Source: Vulcanimicrobiota bacterium
GTDB lineage: Bacteria; Vulcanimicrobiota; Vulcanimicrobiia; Vulcanimicrobiales; Vulcanimicrobiaceae
Length of the DNA: 64,000 bases
Direction of reading: 5' to 3'
NCBI GenBank assembly: GCA_963743605.1
Contig: CAVUQJ010000013.1
Coordinates: 38,633 to 102,632 of the forward strand
Positions 9,247 through 48,779 of the stretch are shown here, piece after piece; position 1 is the first letter of the stretch; the number at the start of each line of letters is the position of its first letter. Made by a program: the position numbers and the translations under genes. Under the pieces are notes generated by a model that had not been told where the DNA came from, did not search any database, and saw only the letters and a program-made list of their open reading frames with translations.

Positions 9247-9250
9247 GACG

Positions 9251-11083: not shown

Positions 11084-11100
11084 GCCGCGCCCCGGTGTCG

Positions 11101-21167: not shown

Positions 21168-21193
21168 CGCAGCGGCCGAGCGGATCCCTGCGG

Positions 21194-25516: not shown

Positions 25517-25526
25517 GAACGTTCTC

Positions 25527-26834
25527 CTACAGATGCAGCGCGAAGACCGTGCCGATGCCGTAAGCGCCGCCAGTTGAGGCCGCGCCAAGCAGCACGCGCG
25601 ATGTTCCTAAGATGACCGGCGCAAGAGGATCCGCCCCATCGTTCCCACCCGTGAACGCGTACAGGACGCGCTCCGTATACCCTGAGCCCGATGGAGTGAG
25701 TTTGAAGATCGTTCCGGCGTTGCCGGCGCCGCCGGAGGACGTCGTGCCGTACAGCGCCCCCGTCTTATCGAGCACGAGACTCGAGAGCGGGAGCGCTCCG
25801 TCGGCGCCGCCTTGGAACGCATAGAGCACGGATTCGGTGTAGCCCGACGCCGTCGGCGTAAGCTTGAAAACCGTCCCGAGGCCGGGCGCGCCACCATACT
25901 CGGTCGTTCCGTACAACGCGCCACCGGCATCAGCGACGATGCCTCCTTCGGGGTAGTAGCCGTCGTTGCCGCCTTGAAAGCTGTAAAGGCGTGAATACAT
26001 GTAGCCGGAGGGCGCCGGTGTCAGCGCGTACACGACGCCGCAGAAGGTAATTCGATTCCTCGGGCACGCTCCATCGCCGCCGAACGCTGCCGTACCGTAG
26101 ATTGCGCCCTTGGCGTCGATCGCGAGTGCTCCCGACGGAAGCGCGCCGTTGGGATCTTCCGGTCCGCTTGAGTAGAGAGGAAACGAGTACACAATCTGCT
26201 CGGGCCCGCCCGAGTTCAGCGTGAAGACGGTTCCCGCGTTACCTCCGACGCCCCATAACGTCGTTCCGTGGAGTGCGCCCGATGCGTCGATGACCATCCC
26301 CCCGTATGGGAACCGGCCATCGGCCGCACCACCATCAAACCGATGGACGAGGCGCTCGGTGTAACCACCCGCCGAGGGCACGAGCGCGAAAACGGTTCCA
26401 CACGCAGTATACTGTTGGAAGACGCAGCCGTTGGAGGCGGACGAACTGCCGCCGTCGAGGGTCGTACCGAATAACGTCCCAGTCCGACCTTCGATGAGGG
26501 GCGCCACCGGAAGCGCACCATCTTTGCTGCCGCCGCGGAACGAATGGAGGACGCTCTCAGTGTAGCCCGATCCCGCCGGCACCAATCGGTACACGGTGCC
26601 GACGTTCTTCGCTCCACCGGCCTCCGTCACGCCGAAGAGAGCGCCTGACTTATCGAGGAGAAGGCCGCTCATCGGCAACGAACCGTCCGCACCGCCGGAG
26701 AAGGCGTGAAGCACTTGCAGCGTCGGTTGCCGAGCACTTCCCGGTCTGCCCGCAAGCGCTGCGTTCGAAGCTGCGAGGCAACATGCAAAGAACCCCAATC
26801 CGAGAACGAATGTCAAACGCCGCGATACCATCAA
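25527..26834 (-). CDS. Secreted tandem-repeat protein with GloVer (Gloeo_Verruco)-type repeats
   Basis: 435 aa. Signal peptide, then about 8 repeats of the form F.GG.DG..P...L..D..GALYGTT..GG....GTVFKL.P...GYTE.VLY.F. Confidence 0.75.
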   Translation of the reverse strand: MMVSRRLTFVLGLGFFACCLAASNAALAGRPGSARQPTLQVLHAFSGGADGSLPMSGLLLDKSGALFGVTEAGGAKNVGTVYRLVPAGSGYTESVLHSFRGGSKDGALPVAPLIEGRTGTLFGTTLDGGSSSASNGCVFQQYTACGTVFALVPSAGGYTERLVHRFDGGAADGRFPYGGMVIDASGALHGTTLWGVGGNAGTVFTLNSGGPEQIVYSFPLYSSGPEDPNGALPSGALAIDAKGAIYGTAAFGGDGACPRNRITFCGVVYALTPAPSGYMYSRLYSFQGGNDGYYPEGGIVADAGGALYGTTEYGGAPGLGTVFKLTPTASGYTESVLYAFQGGADGALPLSSLVLDKTGALYGTTSSGGAGNAGTIFKLTPSGSGYTERVLYAFTGGNDGADPLAPVILGTSRVLLGAASTGGAYGIGTVFALHL

Positions 26835-28562: not shown

Positions 28563-31459
28563 ATGCACCGGTTTCTCCGCCACGCCTTGACGAGCGCGAC
28601 GCTGAGCCTCGGTTTCCTGTGCGCGGCCGGCCCGGTGCTCGCGACGGATGCCCCGGTCGGCGGCCCCGGCGGAGGACCGGCCTGGATTCCGACCGGGGTG
28701 CGCATCGACGCGTTGGCGGCGCCGGGCGCGCAGTTCTTTCGGCTCGCGACGGGCGTCCGTGAGGACGGCACGGCCGACGCCAACCAAGCGATGTCGGCCG
28801 CGTTGAGCCCGGACGGCAAAACGCTGCTCGTGATGACCAGCGGCTATAACACGAAGTTTTCTGCGCCGAACGGCGCGGCGATCACCTATCCGGTGCTCGA
28901 TCCCGCGACCGGGTTACCGAGCAGCGTCAAGACGCCGAACGCGGAGTGGGTCTTCGTCTACGACGTCACCGGCCGCACCCCGGTCAAGCGTCAGCAGCTC
29001 GCCATCCCGAATACGTATCAGGGGATCGCCTGGAAGCCCGACGGCACCGGCTTCTACGTCTCGGCCGGGATCGACGACCGCGTTTACATCTATAAGCGCG
29101 ACGCGGGGGGATCGTTTGTTCCCGACGCGCCGTTCGTGCTGCTCGGGCACAACTCCAACCAAACGGCGCCGCTTCCCAAGGACGACGGCGGGATCCTCAA
29201 GGGGACGCGCGCCGGGGAGGCCACGCTGGGTCTGCTGACGTCGGGAGCGGTCGTCGCGCACATCGCCGTCTCCGCCGACGGCGCGCTGTTGGCTGCCGCG
29301 AACTTCGAGAACGACAGCCTGTCGCTGGTCGATGCGCGTACGCGCAAGGTCACCGGTGAGGTCGCTTTCTTCAAACCGGGCGGCGCCGAGGCGGTCGGCG
29401 AGTATCCGTTCGGCGTCGCCGTATTGTCGCGGCCCGGGCTCTCGGCGAAGGTATACGTCTCGAGCCAGCGCGACGATCAGGTGATCGCGGTCGACGCGGA
29501 GACGCACGCGCAGACCGTCATTCCCGTCGGCAAGGCGCCGAACGCGCTGCTGCTCTCGCCTGATCGCAGCCGGCTTTACGTTGCGGACGGCGACGCCGAC
29601 GCGGTCAGCGTCATCGACACCGCGCGCGATGCGGTCGTCGAGACGATCTCTCTGCACCCCGGCGATCCGTTCGACGGCGCCAATCCCGATGCGCTCGCGT
29701 TGAGCCCGGACGGCCGGCGCCTCTACGTCGCGCTGGGCGGAGCGAACGCCGTCGCCGTCGTCGATCCGCAGCTTCAGGCCGTGCTCGGACGAATCCCGAC
29801 GGGCTGGTACCCGAACGCCGTCGTCGTGAGCAAGGACGGTACGCGGCTGTTCGTCGTCAACGGCAAGCAATCGCCGGGCCCGAATCCCGCCAACGGCTAT
29901 ACGACCGACGCCGGCAAGAACTCGAACACGACGCATATCAACGAGTACGGCTGGGCGCTGGAGAAGGGCGGTCTGCTCGTCGAACCGGTGCCGGCGGGCG
30001 CCGCGAGCTCGCGAAGCTGACGGCGGACGTCGACGCCTACAACGGCGTCGCCAACCGTCGCCGATCCGCGCTGATGGACGAACTCGCGCACCATATCACG
30101 CACGTCATCTACATCACCAAGGAAAACCGGACGTACGACCAGGTGCTCGGCGACCTGCCGCGCGGCAACGGAGACAAGGCGCTCGACGGAGTTTCCGCAG
30201 CCCGTCACACCCAACCACCATGAGCTGGCGCTGGACTACGTGACCTTCGACAACTACTACGATCCCGGCGAGTCGAGCGGCGTCGGCTGGAACTGGAGCG
30301 TCCAGGGTCACGACAACGAGTTCACCGAGAAGAGCCAGGACGTTTATTACGGCAACGCGGCGTTCACCGGGTTCACATACGACTACCAGGGACCGAATCG
30401 CAACGTCAATCTCGCCCTGCCGCAGACGGCCGCCTCACCCGGGCCCTTCGACGCGCGCTTCACCGGCGTCTTCGACCCGACCGGCAGTTCTGTCGATCCT
30501 GCCGGGATCCAAGGACGTTGCCGGAACGCAGGGCGACGGCGATCTGGCGCCGAGCGCCGTCGGCGGTTACCTGTGGGACGAGGCGTTGCGTCACGGCAAG
30601 ACCGTTCGCAACTACGGCGAGCACGTCGACCTGACGTATTACGAGGCGCCGCCGCCCGTCTACATTCCGATCGTGCGCCACCCGTTCGAGGCGGGCGTCC
30701 CGCAGGCACCGCCCGCGAAGCCCGATCTGGTGCCGAACACCGACATCTATTTCCGCGGCTTCGATCAAGCCGCGCCGGACGTCTACCACATGGAAGAGTG
30801 GGAGCGCGAGTTCCGGGGCTACGTGAAGAGCGGTAACCTTCCCAATCTCGAGATGATGACGATCAATCACGATCACTTCGGCTCGTTCGCGCAGGCCATC
30901 GAAGGCTTGACGAACCCGACGCTGCAGATGGCCGACGACGACTACTCGCTCGGACGCATCGTCCAGGACGTCGAGTCGTCGCCGTTCTCGGCGAGCACCG
31001 CGATCTTCGTCAACGAGGACGACTCGCAGACGGGCCCCGACCACGTGGATACGCACCGCTCGCTGCTGCTCGTGATCAGCCCATACACGCGCCGCAACGC
31101 GCTCGTGCACACGCTGTACACGACCGATAACGTCGTGCGTACCATCACCGACCTGCTCGGCCTCAACCACCTCGGCATGCAGGACGCAAACGCGGCGCCG
31201 ATGGCGGACGCGTTCGCGCGCGAGGGGACGGTGAGCGCGTATGCCGCGATCGTGCCGGGCGTGCTCTGTCAGCCGCCGGTCGCGAGCGACCTCGTGCCCG
31301 CCTGCGGGGACGCGTCGGTGCGAAGAGCGCCTACGTCCCCAGCGCCACGGCGGCGCATGGTGGGCGGCGCAGACGGCGGGCATGGACTTCAGCCGGCCGG
31401 ACGCGGTCGACCCGGTACGCTTCAATCAGGTCGTCTGGCGCGGCATCCTGGGCGGCTGA
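28563..31459 (+). CDS. Bifunctional YncE-like beta-propeller / phosphoesterase (PLC/AcpA, PF04185-type) protein; at least 4 frame breaks
   Basis: Signal peptide. YVTN-type repeats (LSPDGKTLLVMTSG, VSADGALLAAANFENDSLSLVD, LSPDRSRLYVADGDADAVSVID, LSPDGRRLYVALGGANAVAVVD, VSKDGTRLFVVNG). Then in other frames HVIYITKENRTYDQVLGDL, TPNHHELALDYVTFDNYYDPGESSGVGWNWS, MMTINHDHFG, AIFVNEDDSQTGPDHVDTHRSLLLVISPY. Ends at TGA 31457-31459. Confidence 0.7.
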
Positions 31460-31970: not shown

Positions 31971-32008
31971 CCCAAGAACCAGGCCGTGGCCGAAAACGTT
32001 CCAGGCGA

Positions 32009-32317: not shown

Positions 32318-32499
32318 GCCGCCCGGGTTCGCAGGCGAACGGCAGGCTCCTCGGAAGTGGGCACGGAGGCGAGCGACCCACGCCGGGTCCCCACGGAATA
32401 CGACGATAGCCGTGGGGCGCAGCAGTCGCGCAGCGCTAGCGAAGCGCGTCGCTGCAAAGGGCGTCGGTTCACGGTACGTGAGCGTCGTGATCCGGTGGT

Positions 32500-33801
32500 C
32501 ATCTGTGTGCCATGCTGTTGGCACATCCGCGTGCGACGATCATGGCGATGCCTCGGTCGAACCGGTTCGATGGTCAACTGCGCTGGCTGCACAAGGTGCG
32601 GCTGTACCCGACGCACGCCCAACGCTCCGCGCTCTTTGGGGCGTTGCGCCAAACCCGCGAACTCTACAATGCGATGCTCGAACAGCGCCGGGAGTACTGG
32701 CGGCGCGGACGGCGTCGCGTTACCGACCAATATCGCCAGATCACCGAACTGCGCGCCAGCGATCCCGCGTACGCTGCGGGCTACCGCGAGTGCCAAGACG
32801 CGGTGTTGCACCGGCTCGAGCTGGCCTACGCGGCGTTCTTTCGGCGCGTCAAGGCCGGTGAAACGCCGGGTGCGCCTCGGTTCAAGAGCGCACGGCGCTG
32901 GAACCAATTTGAGTTTCCACACGGGGATCGAGCCATCACGTTCGACACCGCACAGCGCAGGATGACGATTCCGGGCGTCGGCACCGTGAAGCTGCGCAAG
33001 GGCCGCGTGGTCCCAGCGACCTTCGGACGCGTCTTCATCGTCCACAAGAACGGCCGGTGGTATGCGGTGTTCGAGTGTCACCGGGAGGTTGAACCGTTGC
33101 CGGCGACCGGCCGGAGCGTTGGCATCGATCGGGGTATCCGGGCGCTGGCGGCGCTGTCGACCGGCGAACTCGTGGAGAATCTGCGGCCGGGATCGCGTCG
33201 CCGGGTGGCGACCGAGCGGTGCCAGCGTGAACTCGACGCGGTCACGGTCAAGGACGCGCGGGGCCGACCCATCAACGGCCGCGATCGCCGGCGGAAAGCT
33301 GCGGTGTGCAAGCTAGCCCGGGCCAAAGAGCGCGAGGCCAACGCACGTCGCGACTGGTTGCACAAGTGGTCGCGGACGATCGTGGACCGGTTCGACGTGA
33401 TCGCCCTGGAAGACCTCAGGCTGAAGAACATGACCCGGTCTGCGAAGGGCAACGCTGAGCGGCCGGGGAGGAACGTCAAGGCGAAGAGCGGGCTCAATCG
33501 GGCGCTGCTCGATGCCGGGTTGGGGATACTGGGGACGCTGATTCGCGAGAAGGCTGCAAGTGCTGCTCGCACGGTGATCGGCGTCGATCCCAGGCACTCG
33601 TCGCAAGAGTGCTCGCGGTGCGGGCACGGTGCGGCGAGCAATCGCGTGAGGAGTCGGTTTCGATGCGGGCGGTGTTGGTATCGGTGCGATGCCGATGTCA
33701 ATGCGGCTCGGGTCATTCTCGCACGCGGACGGGCGCAGTTGGCGCCCTCGAGGGCACCGGGTCACGCCCGGAGCAGGACGCACGATGCGGCCTGACCACG
33801 C
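32500..33801 (+). mobile_element. TnpB-only IS200/IS605-family (IS1341-like) element; ends not determined
   Basis: tnpB without tnpA. Hairpin TGTGCCA-tgctgt-TGGCACA at 32506-32525 just upstream of the start. The right end must lie at or before 33801, because a full-length conserved convergent gene ends at 33802. Confidence 0.45.
32542..33795 (+). CDS. tnpB: RNA-guided endonuclease TnpB (IS605 OrfB family)
   Basis: RWLHKVRLYPTHAQRSAL N-terminus; RuvC motifs VGIDRGI, IALEDLRLKNM, DADVNAARVIL; zinc finger CSRCGH...FRCGRCWYRCD. Confidence 0.85.
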   Translation: MAMPRSNRFDGQLRWLHKVRLYPTHAQRSALFGALRQTRELYNAMLEQRREYWRRGRRRVTDQYRQITELRASDPAYAAGYRECQDAVLHRLELAYAAFFRRVKAGETPGAPRFKSARRWNQFEFPHGDRAITFDTAQRRMTIPGVGTVKLRKGRVVPATFGRVFIVHKNGRWYAVFECHREVEPLPATGRSVGIDRGIRALAALSTGELVENLRPGSRRRVATERCQRELDAVTVKDARGRPINGRDRRRKAAVCKLARAKEREANARRDWLHKWSRTIVDRFDVIALEDLRLKNMTRSAKGNAERPGRNVKAKSGLNRALLDAGLGILGTLIREKAASAARTVIGVDPRHSSQECSRCGHGAASNRVRSRFRCGRCWYRCDADVNAARVILARGRAQLAPSRAPGHARSRTHDAA

Positions 33802-34741
33802 TCACAACGAACGCCCCACGGCGAGTCCGCCGGCCGACGGAAGATCGACCGGCCAAGACCCGACGACCGCGCCGTTGGCATAACCGAGTTCGACGACGCG
33901 AAGGCCGCCGAGGAAGTAAAGATCGTTTGCTGCTCCGAACGCGAGCGACCCGGGTGCATGTGACGTTGGAATCATGCGCGCGACGCCCCAATCCGGCGGC
34001 GAGAGTACGGCGATCTGCCCGGATCCTCGCGACGTCGTCCTCCCGACCAACAGGTTCCCAGCCGAATCGAGCGTCAGGTTTGCGGGGCGCGTGACGTTCG
34101 GGGGTTCCGTTGATGCACCGGCCCTTGGACGAGTGCGGCGCGAACTCGACGATCGTGCCGCGGTGGCGGCGGCAGCCGGAACCGTCGCCAGAACCGAGGT
34201 CGCGCACCGCGCTCGCGTCATCGGACGGCTGATACTGATAGGAGACGAACACGTCGCTGTGGGCGTCGACGGCGACGCCGGTCGCGACGTCCCCATAACG
34301 CCGGGGCTGCAGCGTCCTGACCGGCGCTCCTCCCGAAGCGTCATATTCGAGCAGGTCGCCTTGGGACGCCGCGACGTAGACGTTGCCGTCCGGCCCGACG
34401 GCGAGGGAACTGCCGTAGCCGACGCCAGTGAACTGGCGAACCAATCGAAAGCCGCGCACCGAGTGGTGGTACTCCTCCACCACGCCGGCGCCGAACGATT
34501 GTCCGTTGTTGATGACGTACAGGTCGTTGTTCGGTCCCAGTGCGGGACCGACGAGGTTTACGCCGTCCTGCACGAAGACGAATCCGGCGAGTTCGAGCGC
34601 AGGATGCCGGCGGTAGACGTAGACGCCACCGGTTGAAGCGATGTAGAGCACCTCATCGCCGCGGCGCAAGCCCGGTGACAGCCACTGAGCGGGCGGCATC
34701 GCGGCCGGGTGTATGGCGAGGGCGAGCAGCGTCGCGATCAT
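33802..34741 (-). CDS. Secreted propeller-like protein, module A gene 3 (paralogue of 40616..41587); frame break near 34130
   Basis: MIATLLALAIHPAAMPPAQWLSPGLRRGDEVLYIASTGGVYVYRRHPALELAGFVFV...LAVGPDGNVYVAASQGDLLEYDASGGAPVRTL. It continues in the frame of ORF 33802..34344 (LDSAGNLLVGR...IAVLSPPDWGVARMIP...LYFLGGLRVVELGYANGAVVGSWPVDLPSAGGLAVGRSL), collinear with the module B paralogue to the last residue. Confidence 0.6.
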
Positions 34742-34751
34742 CTCGAGTCCC

Positions 34752-35786
34752 TCATTGTTGGTGCACGGCCAGACCGATCGGATGCGCCAGCCTCGTGGCG
34801 CGGCCACGCAGCACCGCGAGCGGTGGGCCGTCGACGTTGCCCGAGGGGTTTGCCGCGTACGTCGTCACGGAGTTCTCATACTCGTTGGCGACATAGATTT
34901 GTCCGGTTCCGTCGAGCGTCACGCTGTGAGGGAGGGCGACGCCGCTGCGGATGCCCCCGATGACGGCGAGCGGCGCCCCCGTGTACGTGCCTCGTGGCGG
35001 CGGATACACGGTGATCGTCCCGATCGCGCCCTTTGACGGTGCGGCGTTCGCAACGTAGATGTCTCCGTCGCCGTCTTCGGCGATCGCGACCGGGTCGTTC
35101 AGGTCGGTGTTAGCTCCGGAGATCGTTGCCTTCGGTGCCTCGTTCAGTACGCCGCGCGGGTCGCGCGCGTAGATCGTGACGTAGCCGCCGTGCGCGCCGT
35201 TGACGACCGCGATCTCGCCGTGCGGGCCGACGGCGATCGCCTCGACCTCGAGCAGTTGCGTGGCGCTTCCGTGGATGGTCGCCAGCGGGGCGCCGGTGAC
35301 ATTCCCGCGCGGGTTTGCAGCGTAGACGGTGACGCTCGGACCGTACCCGTTGAGCACGTAGATGCGCCCGGCCGCGTCGAGCGCGACGCCCTTCGGGTCG
35401 CCGACGCCGGTTTCGCCGCCGGCGATGATGGCGATCGGAAACCGGACGCGTTTACTCGCGGGCGGCGCAAAGACCGCGATCGAGCTGTTGAAGGAACTCG
35501 CGACGTAGATTCGGCCGTCGGCGCCGACGGAGATTCCCGTTGGCCCCTGGATGTCCGACTGCGGTCCGCCGACGGTCGACAGCGGCGCCCGATCGCGACC
35601 GCCGGCCGCGGCATACATCGTCACGGCTTGATCGTGCGAGTTGAGCACATAGACGAGGCCGGTGCCCTCCGCTCCACGCGAGAGCGGCGCGCGGCTTCCG
35701 GACGGCGAGAACGCGGAACCGCCGCAGCCGGCGCAGACGGCGGACAGAAACAGCGCGACGCCGCGGCGCGGGTGATCGATCGTCAT
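34752..35786 (-). CDS. NHL-type six-bladed beta-propeller lipoprotein, module A gene 2
   Basis: MTIDHPRRGVALFLSAVCAGCGG lipobox. Repeated blades of the form G...L..P.G.A.D..GRIYV.N....SVTVYAANPRGNVTG.PLA. The ATG overlaps the upstream stop (ATGA). Confidence 0.7.
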   Translation of the reverse strand: MTIDHPRRGVALFLSAVCAGCGGSAFSPSGSRAPLSRGAEGTGLVYVLNSHDQAVTMYAAAGGRDRAPLSTVGGPQSDIQGPTGISVGADGRIYVASSFNSSIAVFAPPASKRVRFPIAIIAGGETGVGDPKGVALDAAGRIYVLNGYGPSVTVYAANPRGNVTGAPLATIHGSATQLLEVEAIAVGPHGEIAVVNGAHGGYVTIYARDPRGVLNEAPKATISGANTDLNDPVAIAEDGDGDIYVANAAPSKGAIGTITVYPPPRGTYTGAPLAVIGGIRSGVALPHSVTLDGTGQIYVANEYENSVTTYAANPSGNVDGPPLAVLRGRATRLAHPIGLAVHQQ

Positions 35787-37081
35787 GGCGCGATCCGAAA
35801 GACGGCGCCGCCGCCGAACGTTCCGCCGGCGTAGGTTGCGCCGTACAGTGCTCCGTCCGGGCCGAAGGCCAAGCTGGCGTAGGGCTTCGCGCCGTCGACA
35901 CCCGAGAACGCGTGGAGGAGCCGTTCCCGCCACAGCGAGGCGCCGCGAACCGGTGGGATCAACATGAACGCGGTGCCAAGCCCCTTTGATGAGCCGCCGA
36001 AGGTGGTCCCGTAGACCCGCCGATCGGGGCCGACGACGACGCCCCCGTACGGCGCGGCTCCATCGGATCCACCGGTGAAACTGTGCAGTACGGTCTCGCG
36101 CCAGGCGCTCGATCCTGCACGGGGAGGCGCCAGCCGGAAGACGATGCCCTCGTTTGCCGTTCCGCCGGTCAACGTCGTTCCATACAGTGCGCCGTCGCGA
36201 CCGATGGTCAGCGTTCCGTACGGCCCCGAGCCGTCGCCGGCGGACGGTCCCCCGAACTCATACAGCGTTTGGTCCGTCCATGCGCCGCTGCCGCTCGCCG
36301 GCGGCGACAGTTCGAAGACGTTGCCGCACGCGCACGCGCCTCCGCCGTCCACCGCCGTTCCGTAGTAGTTCCCCGCGCCGTCCGCGACCAGCCCGGCGAA
36401 CGGTTGGCAACCGGCATTCGGTGCAACGAATCGCGAGAGGATCGTTTCCGTCCATACGCCGTGCCGCGAGGTCGGCGGCGCCAGGCGGAATGCCAGCCCG
36501 CAAAAGCTGACCGCGCTGGTCGTCGTCGTCCCGTACAACGACCCGTCGGCGGCGAGCGCGAGACCGGCGAAGGGTGCCGCGCCGTCGTCGCGCCCCTCGA
36601 ATGCGTGAAGCACCTTCTCGTTCCAGTAATACTGACCGCTTGTCGGCGGCGTGAGCGAGAACACCGTGCCGCCCCCGTACCCGCCCTCTTGAGTCGTTCC
36701 GTATAGCTTCCCGTCGGATGCGACGGCGACGCCCGCCATCGGCATTTGGCCGTCGGCGCCCATGAAGTTCGTCAGCACGGCGCCGCGCCACGTCGAGTGT
36801 TTGCCGTGCGGTGGCGTCACGCCGTAAACGTCGCCGTCGCCGACACCGCCGTAGCTCGTCGTACCGTAGACGACGCCGGCGCCGTCGACGGCGGGCGTGC
36901 CCCACGGGTGGCTTCCCGCGGGCAGGCTGTAGATCGTTTCGAACGCGGGCTTCAGCGGCGCGCTCCGCGCCGCCGCGCGCGCGGCGATCGGGGCGATTGC
37001 GCCGCAGCACAGTGCCGCAGCGCAAACGACACAGACGGTTCCTGCAGACGGGCGCAAGAAGCGCTGGATGATCATCCTCAC
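35783..37081 (-). CDS. Secreted GloVer-repeat protein, module A gene 1
   Basis: 432 aa. Signal peptide, repeats ending GGTVFSL / GNVFEL / GIVFRL / GTAFML / GAVFRI, each preceded by LYGTT-type motifs. Confidence 0.75.
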   Translation of the reverse strand: MRMIIQRFLRPSAGTVCVVCAAALCCGAIAPIAARAAARSAPLKPAFETIYSLPAGSHPWGTPAVDGAGVVYGTTSYGGVGDGDVYGVTPPHGKHSTWRGAVLTNFMGADGQMPMAGVAVASDGKLYGTTQEGGYGGGTVFSLTPPTSGQYYWNEKVLHAFEGRDDGAAPFAGLALAADGSLYGTTTTSAVSFCGLAFRLAPPTSRHGVWTETILSRFVAPNAGCQPFAGLVADGAGNYYGTAVDGGGACACGNVFELSPPASGSGAWTDQTLYEFGGPSAGDGSGPYGTLTIGRDGALYGTTLTGGTANEGIVFRLAPPRAGSSAWRETVLHSFTGGSDGAAPYGGVVVGPDRRVYGTTFGGSSKGLGTAFMLIPPVRGASLWRERLLHAFSGVDGAKPYASLAFGPDGALYGATYAGGTFGGGAVFRIAP

Positions 37082-37328
37082 CTCGCTCGAGATAAACGCC
37101 CGCCTCAGCGCAATTCTCTGCCACCGGCGTCGTTCCCGCGGATACGTCCGGCGGGCCGCCGGATAGGCGGGCGAGCCCCCCCTCGGCCGGCGTGGTGTGG
37201 GTCACACCTTCCTTTGCCGAAGAGGTGTTCGAGCGGGGGCTCGCCGAGGTTCCCGAGCGTCGCCATGCCGCGCCGCCGCGAGGGACGGCATCGGACCGGC
37301 GTCTCTTCTCTATCGACAGAGGTGTAGC

Positions 37329-39101
37329 ATGAAACGTGCTTTTGCCGTTGGTCTCAGCACCGCGGCTTTCTTTGCGTTGCCGATGCTGCTACCGGCAATC
37401 GGAAGCGCCGGCTCGGTCTCCCCGAGCGCGGCGGCCGGCGCCCGCGGACAATGGGCAGCCATCGTGCGGAACTTCAGTCATCTGCCGCGCATCCACTATC
37501 GCGGTGAACGTCCGACGCATCGGCGGATCCATTACCGCCATCGCGACGGATTCCTTAGCTATCCGACCCAGGTTCAGCACATCGTCGTCATCTACATGGA
37601 AAACCGCTCGGTCGACAACCTGTTCTCCGGTCTTTACTACACGTCGTATCCGTATCCGGGGGGCACTTGGGGATCGCAGCTGACGCTGTGCCAATTCGAC
37701 AACCCCAGCGGTTGCGCGGGGTACGGCCCGCTCAGCAAGTACGAACTGAACGGCGGCCACACCGCCGGGATCGACCCCGGCCACGGCCATGTCAGCGCGT
37801 TCTGGAACGAAGCCAACGGCAACTGGCCGCTCCAGGTCTTCGGCTGCCCGGACATCAGCGTGGCCGGCTCCTGCGGCGGCAAGGTGTTCGCCTACATCGA
37901 TCCCACCCAGATGGCGAACTATGCGGCGCTCGTAACCGGCGTGAACAACGACGGCGTCTCGAACGGCGAGTTCGCGTCGAACATGCTGCAGTCGAACGAG
38001 GGCCCGAGTTGGGTCGCGCATCAGTATCTCATCTGGGACAGTCCGGCGGCTACGGCGCGAACGATACGGCGCCGCTCGCGCAAGCCGAGAACCCCTCGAC
38101 GGTCAAGGGAGACGACACGGATCCCGCCCCGACGAGCGACTGGAGCACCTCCGGCACCTATGCGGACGAGGAGGTCAGCGACACGCCGATCGTCGGCTGC
38201 GGTTCGGTGCCGAACATGCACCCCGAGCGCGTGCTCAACATGACCTACCCATACACGCAGGCGCGCAACCGCGAGTTCAACCACAAGGACACCTCGTTGA
38301 CGCAGGCCTGCGAAGACTACACGACCTTGCTGGACGAGGTCGCGAACAAGTTCCAGCAGACGCCGGCGGCGGCCAACTTCCAGTACATCTTTCACAATCC
38401 CGACAGCATCTGGGCCGCGCCCCTCGGCGTGCAGCACCTGTACAACAGCTGGCAAGCCGAAGGCGGGACGGCGCACGGTAACCAGGATCCGTCGGGGATC
38501 GAGATCGACCCCGACGCCGAAGGCTTCGTCAACCTGACGCTGACGGGCAAGGGCACATTGCCGTTCGCCCCGCTGACGGTCATCACGCCGTGCATGGACT
38601 CGTCGGACCATCCGAACAAGGACCAGTCCGACGACGGTCCGATGTGGCTGCCGTGGGTCGTCAACGCGATCGGCGAGAGCAAGTACTGGCCGAACACGGT
38701 GATCTTCGTCACTTGGGACGATTGGGGCGGCTGGTTCGACAGTTACAACTATCTCACGAATCTATCGCTCCCGTTCCATCCCTATCCGAATCCCGTATAA
38801 CATCCAACAGGATGCCAACGAATGGGGCTTCCGCGTGCCGTTCATCGTCATCTCGCCGTTCATCAAGCACCCGGCGTACGTCTCGAGCGCGAACAACCTC
38901 GGCTTCGTGCGCAGCCAGGGCGCGATCACGAGCGCGATCGAGAACATCTATGCGCTGCCGACGCTCGGCGGCGACGACCTAACGAATCAAAGCGACAACG
39001 GCGACGTGCTTCAAGACATGTTCAACATGAACTCGTCCGGTGCGGCGCCCCCTTATCATCCCGTTCCAACCGGAAGCTACCAGCCGAGCTGCACCGGTTA
39101 G
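37329..39101 (+). CDS. Secreted phosphoesterase family protein (PLC/acid-phosphatase type, PF04185-like); 2 frame breaks (about 38035 and 38795)
   Basis: MKRAFAVGLSTAAFFALPMLLPAIGSAGS signal; HIVVIYMENRSVDNLFSGLY motif; later TVIFVTWDDWGGWFDS and WGFRVPFIVISPFIKHPAYVSS in shifted frames. Confidence 0.7.
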
Positions 39102-39137
39102 TGCAGTAGCGGTTAGGAGGTGCGTGCGGGTTTCGTG

Positions 39138-40481
39138 TTAGGGCAGGACGCCGAACACGGTCCCGCACCCGCCCCCGCCGCAGCCGCTCGGATCGCCGCC
39201 CGCCGCGGTCGTGCCGATCAGTTCGAGCCCGGCGTGCTGCAGGCCGAGCCACAGGCCGCCGTACGGATGTTCGCCGTCCACGCCGCCGGCGAAGCGATGC
39301 AGGATCGTTTCGACGAAGGTTCCACCGGCCGGCGCGAGCGCGAAGACGGTGCCGTAGCCGGAGCCGCCGGGTCCGCCGCCCTGCAACGTCGTGCCGTAGA
39401 GCGTGCCGCTTGCGTCGGCGACGAGTTCGGCGACGGGAAAGTAACCGTCGGTCGGGTCGCGCTTCTCGGAGAAGTGGTAGATCGTCGATTCGGCGTAGCC
39501 GCTCGACCCGGGCGTCAACGCGAAGACCGTCCCGCAGCCGACGTTGAAGTTGCAGGCGGTGCCGCCCCCCTCGAAGGTCGTTCCGTACAGCGTGCCGCGC
39601 GGACCGGCAAGTACGGCGGCCTGCGGATACGCGCCGTCCGTGCCGCCGCCGAACGCATGGAGCACGTGCTCGGCGTAGCCGGCCTTGGTGCGCACGAGTT
39701 CGAACGCGGTGCCGCAGCCGCCGTTGCATTTCGCGCTGCCGCCGCCGTTGGCCGTCGTGCCGAATACGTCGCCGGCACGGTCGACGATGACGCCGGCCTC
39801 GGGCGCGCTGCCGTCGCCGGCGCCCGCGAACGCGTACAGCACGGTCTCCACGTAGCGGTTCCCGCGACGCGCGATGCGGAAGACCGTTCCGCACCCTCCG
39901 CTGCACGCCGCGGAGCCGCCGTGCTCGGTCGTTCCGTAATAGGTATCATTGGCGCCTGCGGTGAGTCCGCCGAGCGGCGTCACCCCGTCGGCGCCGCCGG
40001 CGAAGCGGTAGACGACCTTGTGTGCGAAGCCGCTCCGGGCCGGCGTCAGCGCGTAGACGGTCCCATAGCCCGCTCCCCCCTCGGACGTTACGCCCAGCAG
40101 CGCGCCCGAGCGGGCGACGGCGAGCTTCCCGTAGGGGCGCCAGCCATCGCCGCCGCCGCCGAAACTGTAGGCGACGCTCTCGGCATAGCCCGCCGGGCCC
40201 GGCGTCAGCGCGTAGATGGCCCCGCAGGTTCCCGAGCACTTCCCGCCGCCCAAGATCGTCGCGCCGAAGAGAACCTCGCGGGGACCCGCGACCAGGGTCC
40301 CTCGGGCATCGGCGGCGTCGGGCGTTCCCTGGAACCGGTAGACGGCGGTCTCACCGGGGGCGTGCGCCGGCCAGGCCGTCGCCGCGGCCACCGGTGGGCT
40401 GGCCAGCAACGGCACGAGCGAGACGAGCCAACGCGCAACGGGCGTGATGGGCCAGTCTGAATCCGGGGGCGCTTGCCGCAT
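39138..40481 (-). CDS. Secreted GloVer-repeat protein (stand-alone copy between the modules)
   Basis: 447 aa. Repeats GTCGAIYAL, GYGTVYAL, GCGTVFRI, GCGTAFEL, GCGTVFAL, GYGTVFAL, GCGTVFGV, with LYGTT/FGTT motifs. Cys-containing variant of the repeat. Confidence 0.75.
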   Translation of the reverse strand: MRQAPPDSDWPITPVARWLVSLVPLLASPPVAAATAWPAHAPGETAVYRFQGTPDAADARGTLVAGPREVLFGATILGGGKCSGTCGAIYALTPGPAGYAESVAYSFGGGGDGWRPYGKLAVARSGALLGVTSEGGAGYGTVYALTPARSGFAHKVVYRFAGGADGVTPLGGLTAGANDTYYGTTEHGGSAACSGGCGTVFRIARRGNRYVETVLYAFAGAGDGSAPEAGVIVDRAGDVFGTTANGGGSAKCNGGCGTAFELVRTKAGYAEHVLHAFGGGTDGAYPQAAVLAGPRGTLYGTTFEGGGTACNFNVGCGTVFALTPGSSGYAESTIYHFSEKRDPTDGYFPVAELVADASGTLYGTTLQGGGPGGSGYGTVFALAPAGGTFVETILHRFAGGVDGEHPYGGLWLGLQHAGLELIGTTAAGGDPSGCGGGGCGTVFGVLP

Positions 40482-40615
40482 GACGTGAGCCTCCGCGATC
40501 TCGTTTGACGCTCCGACCTTGTGGGCGATTTCTACTTGGTGCGCCTTGTCAATCCCCCAGGCTTCTCGTTATGCGCTTATTATCTATCCGACCCAAGCCG
40601 CGTCCGGGGTCACGG

Positions 40616-41587
40616 CTACCATCGTCCAACCGCGAGGCCACCGGCGTATGGCTGATGCAACCACCATACGCCGATGATCTCGCCGCCCGGGTAGTTGCGC
40701 TCGACCACCCGGCCACCGGCCAGATAGTACAAGTGGCCCGGCGCGCCGAAGGCGATATACGAAGGATTCTGTTCCAATGGGATCGTTTGCGAAACGTCCC
40801 AGTTCGGCGGCGACAGGATGGCGATATCGCCCTTTTCCCCTCTGGCGTTCGCGACGACCAGGTTGCCGGCGGCATCGAACGCGAGGCTGCCGGGAAAGCG
40901 CGTCGGCAGCGTGGAGTTGACGCAGTGCGCCCGGTGCGAGTAACGGTGGCCGTACTCGTCGACCTCTCCGCTGCGACGGTGACAACCGGAGGGCCCGCCG
41001 GGGACGTCCACGGTCCCGTTCGCCGGCTCCGGTGACGCGTACGGACGCAGCCCCGACGGCCAGAATTGAAACGATACGAAGAGATCGTTTTGCCCGTCGA
41101 CGGCGACGCCGCTCGCTTCATCGAACTCCTTACGCGACTCGATCGACCGCACCGGCGCGCCACCGGACGCCGCCCACTCGAGGACTGCCCCTTGGGCAAC
41201 GCCGTATACGCGCCCATCCGGGCCGACCGTGACGGTTGTGCTCCAGTTCGCCTGGCCGAATTGGCGGATACGCTTAAAGCCGTGAAGGACGTGACGGTAT
41301 TCGTTGATGAAGCTAGCGCCCGATCCGGTGCTGAAGTCCACGACGTAAAGGTTTTGGTGCGCATCGAGCGCTGGGCCGGCCGTCTCGACGTTTTGGTCGA
41401 CGAACAGGAAGCCCGCGAGTTCGAACGCCGGGTGGCGCCGGTAGATATAGACGCCGTCCGGCCCGGAGATGTAGATGACCTCGTCGCCGCGCCGTAGGCC
41501 CGGCGAAATCCACTGCTGCGGCGCCGCAGGGCGCGGCGCGATCAGCGCAGCCTGCGTGCCGAGGAAGGGGAAAAGCGCTGCGAGCAT
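40616..41587 (-). CDS. Secreted propeller-like protein, module B gene 3
   Basis: 323 aa. QWISPGLRRGDEVIYISGPDGVYIYRRHPAFELAGFLFV...VGPDGRVYGVAQGAVLEWAASGGAPVRSI...AFDAAGNLVVANARGEKGDIAILSPPNW...GGLAVGRW. Intact counterpart of 33802..34741. Confidence 0.65.
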   Translation of the reverse strand: MLAALFPFLGTQAALIAPRPAAPQQWISPGLRRGDEVIYISGPDGVYIYRRHPAFELAGFLFVDQNVETAGPALDAHQNLYVVDFSTGSGASFINEYRHVLHGFKRIRQFGQANWSTTVTVGPDGRVYGVAQGAVLEWAASGGAPVRSIESRKEFDEASGVAVDGQNDLFVSFQFWPSGLRPYASPEPANGTVDVPGGPSGCHRRSGEVDEYGHRYSHRAHCVNSTLPTRFPGSLAFDAAGNLVVANARGEKGDIAILSPPNWDVSQTIPLEQNPSYIAFGAPGHLYYLAGGRVVERNYPGGEIIGVWWLHQPYAGGLAVGRW

Positions 41588-41604
41588 GTGGCCCCCGTTC
41601 GAGT

Positions 41605-42663
41605 TTAGTGAAGCGTGATGCCGAGCGGTCGAGCGAGTTCGGTGGCGCGCCCGTGGATCGAGGCGATCGGCGGCCCCGTGACGTTGCCGGTTGGATTCGG
41701 CGCGTAAACGGTCACCGTGTTTGCGTATTCGTTCGTCACATAGATCGCGCCATTCTGATCGAGCGCGATGCCGTCGGGGAACTGAACCCCGCTGCGAACG
41801 CCACCGATGACCGCCGACGGCGAACCGGTGAAGTCACCTCGGTGCGGCGGGTAGACGGTAACGTACCCGAGGTATCCCTTTGACGGGTTCGCGCTTGTAA
41901 CGTAGGCCTTACCGTCGGCGTCGATTGCCCCGGCGGTTGGTCCGTTCAGTCCGGTCGAACCTCCGCCGATCGTTTCGCGCGGCTTCTCGTCTACGTTGCC
42001 GCGTGGGTTAGGCGGGTAGATCGTGACGTACCCGTGTCCGTAGTTGTTTACGACGACGATCTCCCCATGCGGACCGAGCGCCAGCGACAGCGGGTAGTGG
42101 ACGTTCGCGTTGCTGCCGCTGATCGTCGCGAGCGGGGGCCCGGTGACGTTCCCCCGCGGATTTGGAGCGTAGACGGTTACCGAGGCGAAGTATCCCGCGT
42201 TGTTCGCGACGTAGATCCGGCCGGCGCCGTCGACCGCCACCCCGACCGGGGTGTCGATCCCTGTGCTGCCACCGGCGATGATCGCAATCGGGGGCGTCCG
42301 GATGCGGCCGCGCGGATTGGCCCCGAACACGGTGATCGAGCCTGGGTAATACGCATTCGCGACGTACACTCGATCGGCTCGATCGACCGCGACGCCGTCC
42401 GGTGAGATGATATCGGTGTCCGGTCCCCCGATGGTTGCGAGGGGCGATTGGTCCGGCTTGCCGCCGGCTGCATAGACCGTGATCGCTTGCGTCCGCGGAT
42501 CGGCGACGTACACGTTCGCCCCTGCCGTTGCGGCGGCGAGGAGTCCGTCGATCGGTTGCGAGATCGCAGCCGGGTTTATCGCGGAACCGCCGCAGCCCGC
42601 GCACAACGCGCAGAGAACGAGCGCAGCGGTTCTCAAACGTTGCTGCCTATGCGTGCCGGTCAT
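41605..42663 (-). CDS. NHL-type beta-propeller lipoprotein, module B gene 2
   Basis: MTGTHRQQRLRTAALVLCALCAGCGG lipobox. Blades such as GVAVDGAGRIYVANNAGYFASVTVYAPNPRGNVTGPPLATI. Roughly 55-60% identical by eye to 34752..35786. ATGA overlap with the upstream gene. Confidence 0.7.
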   Translation of the reverse strand: MTGTHRQQRLRTAALVLCALCAGCGGSAINPAAISQPIDGLLAAATAGANVYVADPRTQAITVYAAGGKPDQSPLATIGGPDTDIISPDGVAVDRADRVYVANAYYPGSITVFGANPRGRIRTPPIAIIAGGSTGIDTPVGVAVDGAGRIYVANNAGYFASVTVYAPNPRGNVTGPPLATISGSNANVHYPLSLALGPHGEIVVVNNYGHGYVTIYPPNPRGNVDEKPRETIGGGSTGLNGPTAGAIDADGKAYVTSANPSKGYLGYVTVYPPHRGDFTGSPSAVIGGVRSGVQFPDGIALDQNGAIYVTNEYANTVTVYAPNPTGNVTGPPIASIHGRATELARPLGITLH

Positions 42664-43970
42664 GGAACGATCCGAACGAGCGCGCCGCCGCCCGACGCCC
42701 CGCCCCCGTAGGTCACGCCGTAGAGCGCGCCGTCCGGCCCAAAGGCTAAGCCGCCGTCCGGTCGTTGGCCGTCCGGATAGCCGGTGAAGACGTGGAGGAT
42801 GGCCTCGTGCCATGTCGTTCCCCGGTGTCGCGGCGGAGTCAACACGAACGCGATGCCGTAGGTCGTCGTCCCGCCCGACGCGGCGGTTCCAAATACACGG
42901 CCGCCGGAACCGAGGGTCACCGGAGAGAATGGGTTTTGGCCATCGGGCGAGCCGGTGAAGCTATGCAGGACCGTCTCGGTCCACTGCGTCGAGCTGCCGG
43001 ACGGGGGCACGAGCGCGAACACGGTGCCGAGGTTAGCGGTGCCGCCCGCCTCCGTCGTTCCGTAGAGCTCGCCGTGGCGACCGCGCACTAATGTTCCGTA
43101 CGGCCCGGAGCCGTCGCTCATCGCTTGTCCCATAAAACTGTAGATCGTCGTCTCAGTCCACGACGAGCTGCCGGGCTGCGGCGGCGAAAGTTGGTATATC
43201 GTGCCGCACTCGCAGCCCGCGCCGCCGTCGACGGCGGCTCCGAAGAATCCGCCCGAGCCGTCCGGCAGGAGTCCGGCGAACGGCTGGCAGCCGTCGGCGG
43301 CGCCGGCGAAGTCGTGCAGGATCGTCTCGCGCCAGGGTTTTGTGCTACGGTGCGGCGGCGGCGTCAACCGAAAAGCCATGCCGCAGAACCCGGTGTATGA
43401 CGTGATCGTCGTCCCATACGCCGAGCCGTCGGGACCGACGACGAGCGAGCCGCCGTACGGCTCGATCCCGTCCCCGTCGACGCCGGTGAAGTCGTGAAGG
43501 ACGCGTTCCGTCCAGTAGTACTGACCTTTCGGCGGCGGCAGCAACCGAAACACCGTCCCGTAGCCACTGATTCCTCCCGCCGAGGTCGTGCCGTACAGCG
43601 TACCGTCGGGTCCCGGCGTGAGACCGGCGAGTGGCGTCGCCCCGTCGGCGCGGCTGAAGTCGTCCAAGATGGCTTCGCTCCAGGTGGTCTGGCGGCCGCG
43701 CGGGGGTAGCAGCGCGAACGCGACGCCGTAGCCGATACCGCCCGCACTCGAGGCCCCATAAACGACGCCGTCGCCCGCCACGAACGGCGTCCCAAAGGTT
43801 GCGCTGCCCTGCGGGAGGCTCAGGAGGACCGTCTCTCGGGAGGCCCGGTCGCGCGCGCCGGCGACCCCGAACGCCGATCCGATCAGGGCGCCGGAACAAC
43901 AGATAGCCGCCGTCAGACGAGTCGTCTGAGCGACCGAAGGCTTCGGCGGACGGGAGCGCTGGATGACCAT
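42660..43970 (-). CDS. Secreted GloVer-repeat protein, module B gene 1
   Basis: MVIQRSRPPKPSVAQTTRLTAAICCSGALIGSAFG signal. Repeats GYGTVFRL, GTIYQL, GTVFAL, GIAFVL, GALVRI. ATG 43970 chosen (the ORF extends to 44012). Confidence 0.75.
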   Translation of the reverse strand: MVIQRSRPPKPSVAQTTRLTAAICCSGALIGSAFGVAGARDRASRETVLLSLPQGSATFGTPFVAGDGVVYGASSAGGIGYGVAFALLPPRGRQTTWSEAILDDFSRADGATPLAGLTPGPDGTLYGTTSAGGISGYGTVFRLLPPPKGQYYWTERVLHDFTGVDGDGIEPYGGSLVVGPDGSAYGTTITSYTGFCGMAFRLTPPPHRSTKPWRETILHDFAGAADGCQPFAGLLPDGSGGFFGAAVDGGAGCECGTIYQLSPPQPGSSSWTETTIYSFMGQAMSDGSGPYGTLVRGRHGELYGTTEAGGTANLGTVFALVPPSGSSTQWTETVLHSFTGSPDGQNPFSPVTLGSGGRVFGTAASGGTTTYGIAFVLTPPRHRGTTWHEAILHVFTGYPDGQRPDGGLAFGPDGALYGVTYGGGASGGGALVRIVP

Positions 43971-44109
43971 CTCACCTCGCTCGAACCCAGGCCCGCTTCG
44001 TCCTCTTCGCAAACGAGAGCAAGCCTCCCTTGCGCTTGGCGGACAATGGCCGTCCTCGACAGTCGACGCCGCCGTTCCTCAGCCGGCGACCGGCTTGTTG
44101 CCGCTCAGG

Positions 44110-44153
44110 GGGGACATCTCTGCTTGGCCAGGATGGGGACATCTGTGCTTGGC
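44110..44153 (+). repeat. Tandem 19-nt direct repeat upstream of the rplC promoter
   Basis: GGGGACATCTCTGCTTGGC (44110-44128) and GGGGACATCTGTGCTTGGC (44135-44153): 18 of 19 identical, 25-nt period. Confidence 0.6.
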
Positions 44154-44167
44154 GCCGATACCCGCCT

Positions 44168-44196
44168 TTGACTTTTTCGGCGCGTCCGGGTACTCT
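44168..44196 (+). promoter_or_regulatory. Putative promoter for the rplC-proximal part of the S10 cluster
   Basis: TTGACT (44168-44173), 17 nt, TACTCT (44191-44196). Followed by a ~120-nt leader containing a 9-bp hairpin GGCCGCGAC/GTCGCGGCC (44214-44245). Confidence 0.4.
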
Positions 44197-44318
44197 AGAA
44201 CGGTTGCGGTCCTGGCCGCGACTGCCTTCTTGCGCGGTCGCGGCCGGAACGGTACCACAAACGCCAGGCCCCGAGGTCATGGCGAGCCCCTCCGACGAGA
44301 CGAAAGACCTTCGAACTC

Positions 44319-44972
44319 ATGAAGAACATCATCGGCCGCAAGGTTGGGATGACAAGCGTGTTTACGCCCGACGGACGCTACGTCCCGGTGACGGTCATCG
44401 AAGCGGGTCCCTGCGTCGTCTTGCAGCGCAAGACGGTCGAGAAGGACGGCTACGAGGCGGTCGCCCTGGCGTTCGCCGACGCGAAACGCAATGCCCTGAC
44501 CAAACCACTCGCCGGTCGCTACAAGAAGGCCGGGCTCGCCCAGAAGCGCCACATCCGCGAGTTCCGCGCGGGGATCGAGGGCGTCGAAGCCGGCGCGACG
44601 ATCACCGCCGCCGACTTCGCCGAGGGCGACCGTGTCGACGTGCACGGCATCTCGAAGGGCCACGGGTTCGCCGGCGGCATCAAGCGCTGGAACTTCAGCG
44701 GCGGCGGGCAGACCCACGGGTCGATGATCCATCGCCAGCCTGCCAGCAACGGCGACACCAACGCCGGCCGCACCGTCATCGGCAGCCACCGCCCCGGACA
44801 CTACGGCGTCGATCGCACGACGACGCAGGGGCTCGAGGTCGTGCGCACGGACGCCGAGCGCAACCTGCTGCTCCTGCGCGGCGCGGTCCCCGGCGCGCGC
44901 AACGCGGTCGTGACCGTCACCTTCAGCGTGAAGCAGCCCAAGCCGCGCGCAGCGACGGGGGAGAAGAAGTAG
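44319..44972 (+). CDS. rplC: 50S ribosomal protein L3
   Basis: MKNIIGRKVGMTSVFTPDGRYVPVTVIEAGPCVVLQRKT...GSMIHRQPASNGDTNAGRTVIGSHRPGHYG. Confidence 0.95.
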   Translation: MKNIIGRKVGMTSVFTPDGRYVPVTVIEAGPCVVLQRKTVEKDGYEAVALAFADAKRNALTKPLAGRYKKAGLAQKRHIREFRAGIEGVEAGATITAADFAEGDRVDVHGISKGHGFAGGIKRWNFSGGGQTHGSMIHRQPASNGDTNAGRTVIGSHRPGHYGVDRTTTQGLEVVRTDAERNLLLLRGAVPGARNAVVTVTFSVKQPKPRAATGEKK

Positions 44973-47746: not shown

Positions 47747-47747
47747 C

Positions 47748-48779
<1,032 letters not shown>

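Follow-up and report, generated by a model that had tools for sequence, protein, structure and literature searches.

What do three exported repeat proteins do when the same bacterium encodes them side by side, twice over, in closely packed genes? The question is raised by a 64,000-nucleotide (nt) stretch of contig CAVUQJ010000013.1 (positions 38,633 to 102,632) from an uncultured, soil-type member of the Vulcanimicrobiota (Eremiobacterota/WPS-2), which we call the window throughout. It carries two copies of a three-gene module, each comprising a GloVer-repeat protein (G), an NHL-repeat protein (N) and a third protein (T), and we number the genes by module. A preliminary description, made from the letters alone, had proposed an extracellular binding or capture system. 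The reading that we favor, with a probability of roughly 40%, is a clade-restricted operon of three exported beta-propellers that would act as a non-catalytic binding or capture module of the cell envelope beside secreted hydrolases. Taken singly, the proteins are new members of known repeat or fold families. Their arrangement in an operon appears to be undescribed, since our literature searches on GloVer/choice-of-anchor and TIGR03803/Gloeo_Verruco found nothing relevant, including no report of carbohydrate binding for any GloVer protein, and neither did a search on Eremiobacterota with NHL repeat.

Vulcanimicrobiota are abundant in acidic soils and peat, and to our knowledge there is almost no experimental biology on them. 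A conserved operon in which a GloVer propeller is stoichiometrically linked with two of the NHL type would offer a concrete entry point to the function of the GloVer family, through complex formation and the binding of glycans or organophosphates.

Three predicted propellers in one packed operon

The features on which the argument rests are as follows.

G1, 35783..37075 (ATG start; alternative GTG at 37081), minus strand: GloVer-repeat protein of 430 amino acids (aa), first gene of module 1
N1, 34752..35786, minus strand: NHL-repeat propeller of 344 aa with a probable lipoprotein signal (Pfam NHL, 51.3 bits), second gene of module 1
T1, 33802..34741, minus strand: paralogue of T2, 312 aa once repaired, third gene of module 1, with a +1 frameshift in the window
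G2, 42660..43970, minus strand: GloVer-repeat protein of 436 aa with an N-terminal signal peptide (TIGR03803, 167.9 bits), first gene of module 2
N2, 41605..42663, minus strand: predicted six-bladed NHL propeller of 352 aa with a probable lipoprotein signal (Pfam NHL, 52.4 bits), second gene of module 2
T2, 40616..41587, minus strand: predicted divergent NHL-type six-bladed propeller of 323 aa (AlphaFold2 model and profile search of the PDB), third gene of module 2
G3, 39138..40481, minus strand: second GloVer protein, 447 aa (TIGR03803, 129.3 bits), 134 nt downstream of T2
GAGCGAGGTGA, 43972..43982, minus strand: 11 nt directly 5' of the G2 start, with the same 11-mer at 37078..37088 before G1

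Both modules can be read directly from the window, collinear on the minus strand, where the preliminary description had placed them. The one adjustment concerns the start of G1, which had been put at the GTG at 37081: the ATG at 37075 agrees with the starts of G2 and of its counterpart on contig L005, and with a 430-aa call in a second assembly (L001; ENA ERZ25039465, a 1.27-Mb contig about 99.8% identical over the modules). The stop codon of G and the start codon of N overlap as ATGA at 35786-35783 (G1/N1) and 42663-42660 (G2/N2), as had also been described, and N and T are separated by gaps of 10 nt in module 1 and 17 nt in module 2. Judged by the stop-start overlap, G and N are translationally coupled. 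G + C content in this region is 67-69%.

In an alignment of the upstream regions, GAGCGAGGTGA is identical before G in all four triads (both modules and those of contigs L003 and L005), where the coding DNA is only about 64% identical, and a 31-nt block is 93% identical between the two modules. The 11-mer is probably an extended Shine-Dalgarno sequence. On L003, a mutation has changed the ATG behind it, and a TTG further downstream is called as the start. A promoter and terminator scan of positions 32000-45000 gave counts no higher than expected in shuffled sequence, so the boundaries of the operon cannot be assigned in this way.

Between the modules, BLASTP identities are 51.6% for G, 54.4% for N and 46.0% for T, with 64% identity at the DNA level over 2.4 kb, so the duplication is old. 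This is what the preliminary description had concluded from an estimate of 55-60% for the N pair, a figure slightly above the measured one. Its statement that both copies have been kept holds in that two modules are present; T1, as it stands in the window, is frameshifted and carries an insertion sequence (IS) element at its stop codon, and we return to both below.

The first gene had been described as a GloVer protein with a signal peptide, and the profile searches agree. Against the NCBIfam model TIGR03803 (GloVer, Gloeo_Verruco; cut-off 44 bits), G1 scores 197.4 bits over seven stretches, G2 167.9 bits over six and G3 129.3 bits over five, while the N-termini of G1 and G2 show an n-region with R/K and then a hydrophobic core. 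G2 contains seven repeats of about 57 aa, spaced by 57-60 aa and with about 44% mean identity between blades. Its AlphaFold2 model has a predicted local distance difference test score (pLDDT) of 90.6 and a predicted template-modelling score (pTM) of 0.87, and the best Foldseek matches in the PDB are to the seven-bladed Photorhabdus lectin PHL, at 14% identity and with template-modelling (TM) scores of 0.49-0.56 normalized by query and 0.60-0.68 by target.

A search of the GloVer profile against the PDB has a sole sequence match, 5c2m, which is a tachylectin-2-type propeller (PMC8458387). Against the Pfam Tachylectin family (PF14517; gathering cut-off 29.8 bits), G1 scores above the cut-off at 39.5 bits, G2 falls below it at 26.9 bits and G3 has no match, and the G2 model has seven blades, not five. 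Like tachylectin-2 and the Photorhabdus PHL-PLL lectins, G would be an all-beta propeller of near-identical blades, but these are about 57 aa long rather than about 47 aa, and they number seven as against five in tachylectin-2. The C-terminal surface-sorting signal to which the name 'choice-of-anchor' alludes is absent from G1, G2 and G3, which end right after the last repeat (...FRIAP*, ...VRIVP* and ...FGVLP*, respectively). Such a signal is common among GloVer members, but it does not define the family. As modelled, G is a bona fide GloVer protein, a seven-bladed lectin-like propeller with a classical signal peptide.

The second gene had been called an NHL lipoprotein. The NHL assignment is secure, with 51.3 bits for N1 and 52.4 bits for N2 against a gathering cut-off of 20 bits (PF01436), and N2 has six blades with a periodicity of about 50 aa, YV(A/T)N-type strands and about 40% identity between blades. 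Its nearest solved structures by sequence are the Pizza proteins and the sensor domain of Mycobacterium tuberculosis PknD (E 2e-15 to 5e-11). The lipoprotein part of the claim is plausible, with a caveat. We took as the criterion a lipobox of the form [LVI][ASTVI][GAS]C that closes a signal peptide whose n-region is basic. The N signals have a basic n-region and a hydrophobic core, and end in ...SAVCAGC|GGS in N1 and ...LCALCAGC|GGS in N2; the cysteine and the following GG(S/D/E) are conserved in all four orthologues, but the box itself is CAGC in the window copies, the canonical IAGC on L003 and CPAC on L005. N is probably a lipid-anchored lipoprotein.

For the third gene, the preliminary description had given a secreted protein starting 10-17 nt after N, and the spacing and the termini are as it said: the proteins begin ...QW(L/I)SPGLRRGDEV and end GGLAVGR. 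T1 is not an intact open reading frame (ORF) in the window, and export of both copies would depend on a short N-terminal hydrophobic stretch; in the more distant homologues P0006 and P0007, the signal peptide is of the classical kind. Membership of Pfam NHL is marginal, since T2 scores 21.2 bits against the cut-off of 20 with no single stretch significant and the repaired T1 has no match. The AlphaFold2 model of T2 (pLDDT 77.5, pTM 0.79) has about 25 strands, which is consistent with six blades; its Foldseek matches are generic six-bladed YWTD, NHL and lactonase propellers only, with query-normalized TM scores of 0.55-0.64; and the T profile finds Pizza and PknD in the PDB (E 1e-9 to 2e-5). 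An exhaustive search with the same profile recovered about six true family members, beyond which there were only repeat-level NHL/SBBP matches. Together, these results model T as a six-bladed propeller of divergent NHL type whose family is very small.

The third protein had been described as containing RGD. The motif is found in T1, T2 and the homologues P0002-P0004 and P0009, but it is replaced by PSD in P0006, ANR in P0007 and EPG in P0037. It therefore does not define the family, and we rejected it as a functional motif. Among the close members of the family, only D35 and E36 are invariant.

Distribution and origin of the triad

Does the triad recur outside this genome? It does, within narrow limits. 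Six T-type proteins are present among 5.8 billion clusters, and about 335 N-type NHL hits include only four orthologues of N before identity falls to 40% or less. The complete order G-N-T occurs in two other metagenomic lineages: on L003, between marC and a PEBP gene, and on L004 and L005, where it is followed by a further GloVer gene (G-N-T-G') at the position of module 2, directly beside rplC. Orthologues of N1 and T1 lie together on L006, and on the more distant L090 the C-terminus of an N-type protein ends 12 nt upstream of the T homologue P0007. The overlap between G and N is conserved as GTGA on L003 and L005.

These loci also change the view of G3, which the preliminary description had treated as a fifth wheel. 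G3 shares 60% identity with the gene that on L004 and L005 comes directly after T, at a distance of 1 nt, and we read it as the fourth gene of the operon rather than a stray because the two are orthologous. Module 2 shares 58-65% identity with the triads of L003 and L005 and only 46-54% with module 1. Module 2 together with G3 is therefore the ancestral G-N-T-G' unit. Judged by sequence comparison, module 1 is, together with the phosphoesterase gene PE2 that lies between the modules, an older paralogous block that L004 and L005 do not have.

Searches beyond these contigs were negative. None of the other Vulcanimicrobiota genomes inspected (L007-L013) has a triad near rplC. A T profile scan of 185,579 species-representative genomes gave nine pattern stretches and no relative, so that both the family and this species are missing from that set at the sensitivity of the pattern. 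A corresponding scan of metagenome contigs from JGI returned 438 pattern matches, none of them a relative, a result that is uninformative since the JGI proteins P0002-P0004 exist and were thus missed by the collection or the patterns. The GloVer family is by comparison very large, with more than 6,500 of 8,000 scored candidates being relatives. We rejected the idea that pairing with an N-type gene is a general property of GloVer proteins because two closer GloVer homologues, P0283 and P0300, are solitary. With no triad in L007-L013 and other GloVer genes solitary, the distribution marks the triad as an invention of one Vulcanimicrobiota clade and not as a general GloVer feature.

Ribosomal proteins and EF-Tu place the clade. 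The L3 protein of the window is 69-75% identical to its best matches among species-representative genomes, nearly all of them Vulcanimicrobiota (Vulcanimicrobiaceae, Velthaea and Lustribacter), and the corresponding values for EF-Tu and S10 are 87-90% and 95-99%. L004 and L005 are much closer, at 93.5% for L3 and 94.6% for EF-Tu. The best L3 match of all (75%), L007 (CAJCIN010000310.1), is labelled 'Rhodospirillales bacterium', which is probably a taxonomic misassignment, the other close matches being Vulcanimicrobiota.

So narrow a distribution bears on whether the three proteins have anything to do with each other. They could be co-transcribed and otherwise independent surface or coat proteins (adhesins, structural proteins of the envelope or variable surface proteins) that arose in a lineage-specific expansion of repeat proteins, with a gene order that was simply inherited by descent. 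The triad loci all come from close relatives, as the L3 and EF-Tu identities of L004 and L005 show; GloVer genes are very numerous and usually solitary; four of them lie in a 20-kb part of the window; and T is loosely constrained. On the other hand, order, overlap and spacing have persisted while the proteins diverged to 46-65% identity, both in the two paralogous modules and in the different surroundings of L003, and the N-T pair has persisted in the more distant L090. Weighing these, we consider independence of the three proteins unlikely, while keeping it as an alternative to a joint binding module.

Binding, catalysis and the neighboring hydrolases

What would such a module do? We infer its binding or capture role from the fold, the symmetry of the repeats and the neighboring genes. 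High internal symmetry in a propeller is typical of multivalent binders. Blade symmetry is high in these proteins, their relatives are lectin- or sensor-like, and no full-length match to an enzyme family was obtained for G, N or T among the Pfam and NCBIfam profiles; for these reasons, we read them as non-catalytic, multivalent ligand binders. The preliminary interpretation stands as a hypothesis: the triad recurs outside this genome, and the third gene matches no characterized enzyme family, having only the marginal NHL match and PknD and Pizza as its nearest solved relatives. In the mechanism that we propose, G, N and T are made together from one operon, and the lipid-anchored N would be the platform on which the other two gather at the cell envelope. 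The resulting complex would serve in binding, capture or adhesion, with substrates that are polymeric or phosphorylated. These could then be processed by neighboring secreted hydrolases, namely two phosphoesterases of the PF04185 family and, a little further off, a sedolisin paired with another GloVer protein.

Several observations pull the other way. Propeller folds are generic, and the TM scores to lectins reach only 0.5-0.56 when normalized by query. The CAGC lipobox of N in the window is non-canonical, and the N-termini of T1 and T2 have a short hydrophobic stretch without a basic residue. T evolves fast, with 25 non-synonymous as against 17 synonymous codon changes relative to L006, and the T1 copy in the window combines its frameshift with an IS element at the stop codon. 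Only a few contigs, all of one Vulcanimicrobiota clade, carry the triad, and the closer GloVer homologues, as noted, stand alone. No phosphoesterase neighbors the N-type gene on L088, L096 or the short L003. Finally, N2 scores above the Pfam gathering cut-offs of two enzyme families, SGL (PF08450; 36.3 versus 26.3 bits) and Lactonase (PF10282; 35.2 versus 21.7 bits).

The last point raises the possibility of an extracellular or periplasmic enzymatic pathway in which N, T or both would be lactonase- or lyase-type NHL/SGL enzymes whose substrate is a small molecule, and G would be an accessory protein. A precedent would be ScyD/ScyE/ScyF of the cyanobacterial scytonemin cluster, likewise three consecutive genes for exported NHL-type propellers, and N1 and N2 do have weak matches to ScyE and ScyF. 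Foldseek also lists 6-phosphogluconolactonase and strictosidine synthase among the structures that match T2, and JGI names the orthologues '6-phosphogluconolactonase (cycloisomerase 2 family)'. Nevertheless, the enzyme-family matches span one or two blades only: the best SGL and Lactonase stretches of N2 cover just 72-92 of 246 and 344 profile positions, and N1 is below both cut-offs. The ScyE/ScyF scores, 44.3/36.8 bits for N1 and 37.7/31.5 bits for N2 (E 1e-8 to 1e-11), with 18.1 bits for T2, are far under the curated cut-offs of 80 bits for ScyD/ScyE (NF033206) and 350 bits for ScyF (NF035926). The nearest solved relatives by sequence are non-enzymatic (the PknD sensor, Pizza and the NHL domains of TRIM proteins), the high symmetry between blades speaks against a specialized active site, and there are no biosynthetic genes nearby. 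The triad also differs from the scy cluster in lacking scytonemin biosynthetic genes in its vicinity and a PEP-CTERM signal, while its first gene, for the GloVer protein, has no counterpart there. An enzymatic pathway is thus improbable in our judgement, to about the same degree as the independence of the three proteins.

Among the closest parallels to the favored non-catalytic module is the sensor domain of PknD, a Ser/Thr kinase of M. tuberculosis (PDB 1rwi), together with the Pizza propellers derived from it, which like N and T are six-bladed, highly symmetric and of NHL type, and extracytoplasmic. The PknD propeller is presumed to bind a ligand rather than to act as a catalyst. A transmembrane helix connects it to a kinase in a single protein, whereas N and T are free-standing, N is probably lipid-anchored and both are in an operon with a GloVer propeller. 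The likeness could also be taken to mean that the triad is a sensory module, with PknD-like propellers that sense an extracellular ligand and signal to a regulator encoded at 21086..23803, with helix-turn-helix (HTH), STAND NTPase and tetratricopeptide repeat (TPR) domains. PknD is indeed the nearest solved relative of both N and T, and this STAND-type regulator is in the same genomic island, but G, N and T have no transmembrane or signalling domain, and the regulator is 10-20 kb distant and missing on L003, L004 and L005. We consider signalling very improbable, far more so than any other alternative weighed here.

For capture at the surface, the Bacteroides protein BtuG (PDB 8bmx/8bmy) offers a model, being a lipid-anchored propeller that captures an extracellular ligand; it is among the Foldseek matches of T2, at 8-9% identity. 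BtuG is seven-bladed and works with a TonB-dependent transporter, and no transporter gene accompanies the triad. We also considered membership of an anti-phage defence system. G2, T2 and G3 matched none of the PADLOC defence-system models, and the candidate was rejected because PADLOC gave only one weak, repeat-level match of N2, to PD-T4-6 (E 1.2e-5, 22.6 bits).

The neighboring genes concerned are the following.

PE2, 37329..39101, plus strand: PF04185 phosphoesterase with export predicted as secreted, 590 aa long in L001 and split over three frames by indels in the window; divergent from G1
PE1, 28563..31456: YncE-type propeller fused to a PF04185 phosphoesterase, 964 aa in L004
Fourth GloVer gene, 25527..26834, minus strand: TIGR03803, 220.9 bits over seven stretches
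Sedolisin-type (pro-kumamolisin/S53) peptidase gene, 23843..25588, minus strand: the fourth GloVer gene is directly upstream and overlaps it
HTH (XRE-type)-STAND NTPase-TPR regulator, 21086..23803: 905 aa, inside the island, absent from the island of L004/L005

Both modules are located in a 25-kb island between rpsJ (19096-19404) and rplC (44319-44972), which carries mainly exported proteins, including an SBP_bac_5 solute-binding protein and an aldo-keto reductase. A phosphoesterase and a GloVer gene had been reported between the modules, and both are present as the PF04185 gene PE2, with two frameshifts, and G3. A distant match of PE2 to the acid phosphatase/phospholipase C subfamily is below the cut-off.

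A link between N-type genes and phosphoesterases is suggestive from gene neighborhoods. NHL genes of this type are within 3 kb of PF04185 phosphoesterases in the window and on L004, L087 and L095. L087 (Ca. Cybelea sp., GCA_049695635.1; positions 1739-9124) repeats the theme of the window without a T homologue: three GloVer lipoprotein genes in tandem, two of them with the canonical lipobox LAAC, precede genes for an NHL lipoprotein, a secreted protein of 175 aa and a lipoprotein phosphoesterase of the PF04185 family. A 317-aa protein encoded downstream of a second NHL gene on this contig was rejected as a distant T, because hhalign gave it a probability of 6% with the T profile. On L095 (positions 7001-11240; JGI 3300031715), the N-like NHL gene is convergent with genes for a PNGase A and a PF04185 phosphoesterase. 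PNGase A is an enzyme that deglycosylates glycoproteins.

PE1 shows within one protein how the two activities might be combined, as it physically joins a secreted YncE-type propeller to an enzyme of the phosphoesterase family that neighbors the triad. By analogy only, propellers could serve as binding modules for phosphoesterases because PE1 joins one to a PF04185 enzyme; the propeller of PE1 is YVTN/YncE-type and has no detectable BLAST relation to G, N or T. The most specific version of the capture reading goes a step further and would have G, N and T form a hetero-oligomeric surface complex on N that captures a specific extracellular polymer or organophosphate and presents it to the PF04185 phosphoesterases. 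We rate this version as quite unlikely. If true, this would be an apparatus for substrate capture of a kind not described before, and phosphoglycans, phospholipids or extracellular DNA are examples of what it might bind.

Two further observations concern the island. The fourth GloVer gene and the sedolisin gene again pair a GloVer propeller with a secreted hydrolase, the second such case here. The island itself splits the S10 ribosomal operon, and the distance between rpsJ and rplC, 25 kb in the window, is 4-9 kb in other Vulcanimicrobiota genomes; the split with its variable cargo looks like a trait of the phylum.

Frameshifts and the element at T1

Is module 1 still functional? Two further features bear on this.

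C5 homopolymer, 34099..34103, minus strand: site of the T1 frame switch, C4 in L001, with a single extra base at 34099 in the L001 alignment
IS200/IS605-type element with tnpB only (32512..33795), 32355..33806, plus strand: 1,452 bp, scoring 229 bits for NF040570 guided_TnpB (cut-off 100)

In the window, T1 is split into codons 1-213 (34741..34103) and codons 214-312 (34101..33802), and the NCBI/ENA protein P0005 is the read-through of its first frame. With four C, as in L001, the gene is intact and encodes 312 aa; the orthologue on L006 is intact at 311 aa. Once repaired, T1 shares 46% identity with T2 and 92% with the L006 protein. The IS element is placed exactly on the stop codon of T1, where L006 has the empty site, and its insertion changes the conserved C-terminus ...VGRW of T into ...VGRSL.

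It could be argued from this that module 1 is a decaying copy, the frameshift being genuine and marking, together with the IS element, a pseudogene in the making, with only module 2 functional. The frameshift is present both in the window and in P0005, the TnpB element replaces the conserved C-terminal Trp and T is under relaxed constraint. Against this, the 99.8%-identical L001 has an intact T1 with C4 and not C5, and it keeps that complete T1 although it carries the same IS element. Frameshifts also occur elsewhere in the window: near 16188-16195 in fusA, at least twice in PE1 (28563..31456) and at 38035 and 38794 in PE2, where a tblastn search with the intact L001 protein recovers three 100%-identical pieces in frames 3, 2 and 3. 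Wherever L001 allows a comparison of such sites (T1, PE2 and the 3' end of PE1), every length difference is in a homopolymer of 2-4 bases, which points to assembly indels. Since L001 has C4, the L006 gene is intact and the essential fusA is frameshifted along with PE1 and PE2, the frameshift in T1 is most likely an indel error of the assembly, and decay of module 1 appears doubtful, about as much so as the presentation complex discussed above. Programmed +1 frameshifting in T1 was rejected for similar reasons, the change being a plain difference in the length of a C run from a near-identical assembly and other genes, essential fusA among them, being shifted as well.

In view of these indels, which affect even fusA, apparent pseudogenes or fusions in this window should not be taken as biology. 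The genes for L22 and S3, for instance, read as one ORF of 514 aa (47235-48779), probably a further indel artefact. L001 is clean across the modules and very noisy over the ribosomal operon, where the two assemblies are 91% identical with 125 gaps. In the IS element, the tnpB stop codon lies only 11 nt from the element end, so any omega-RNA guide would come from the antisense strand of the T1 3' end.

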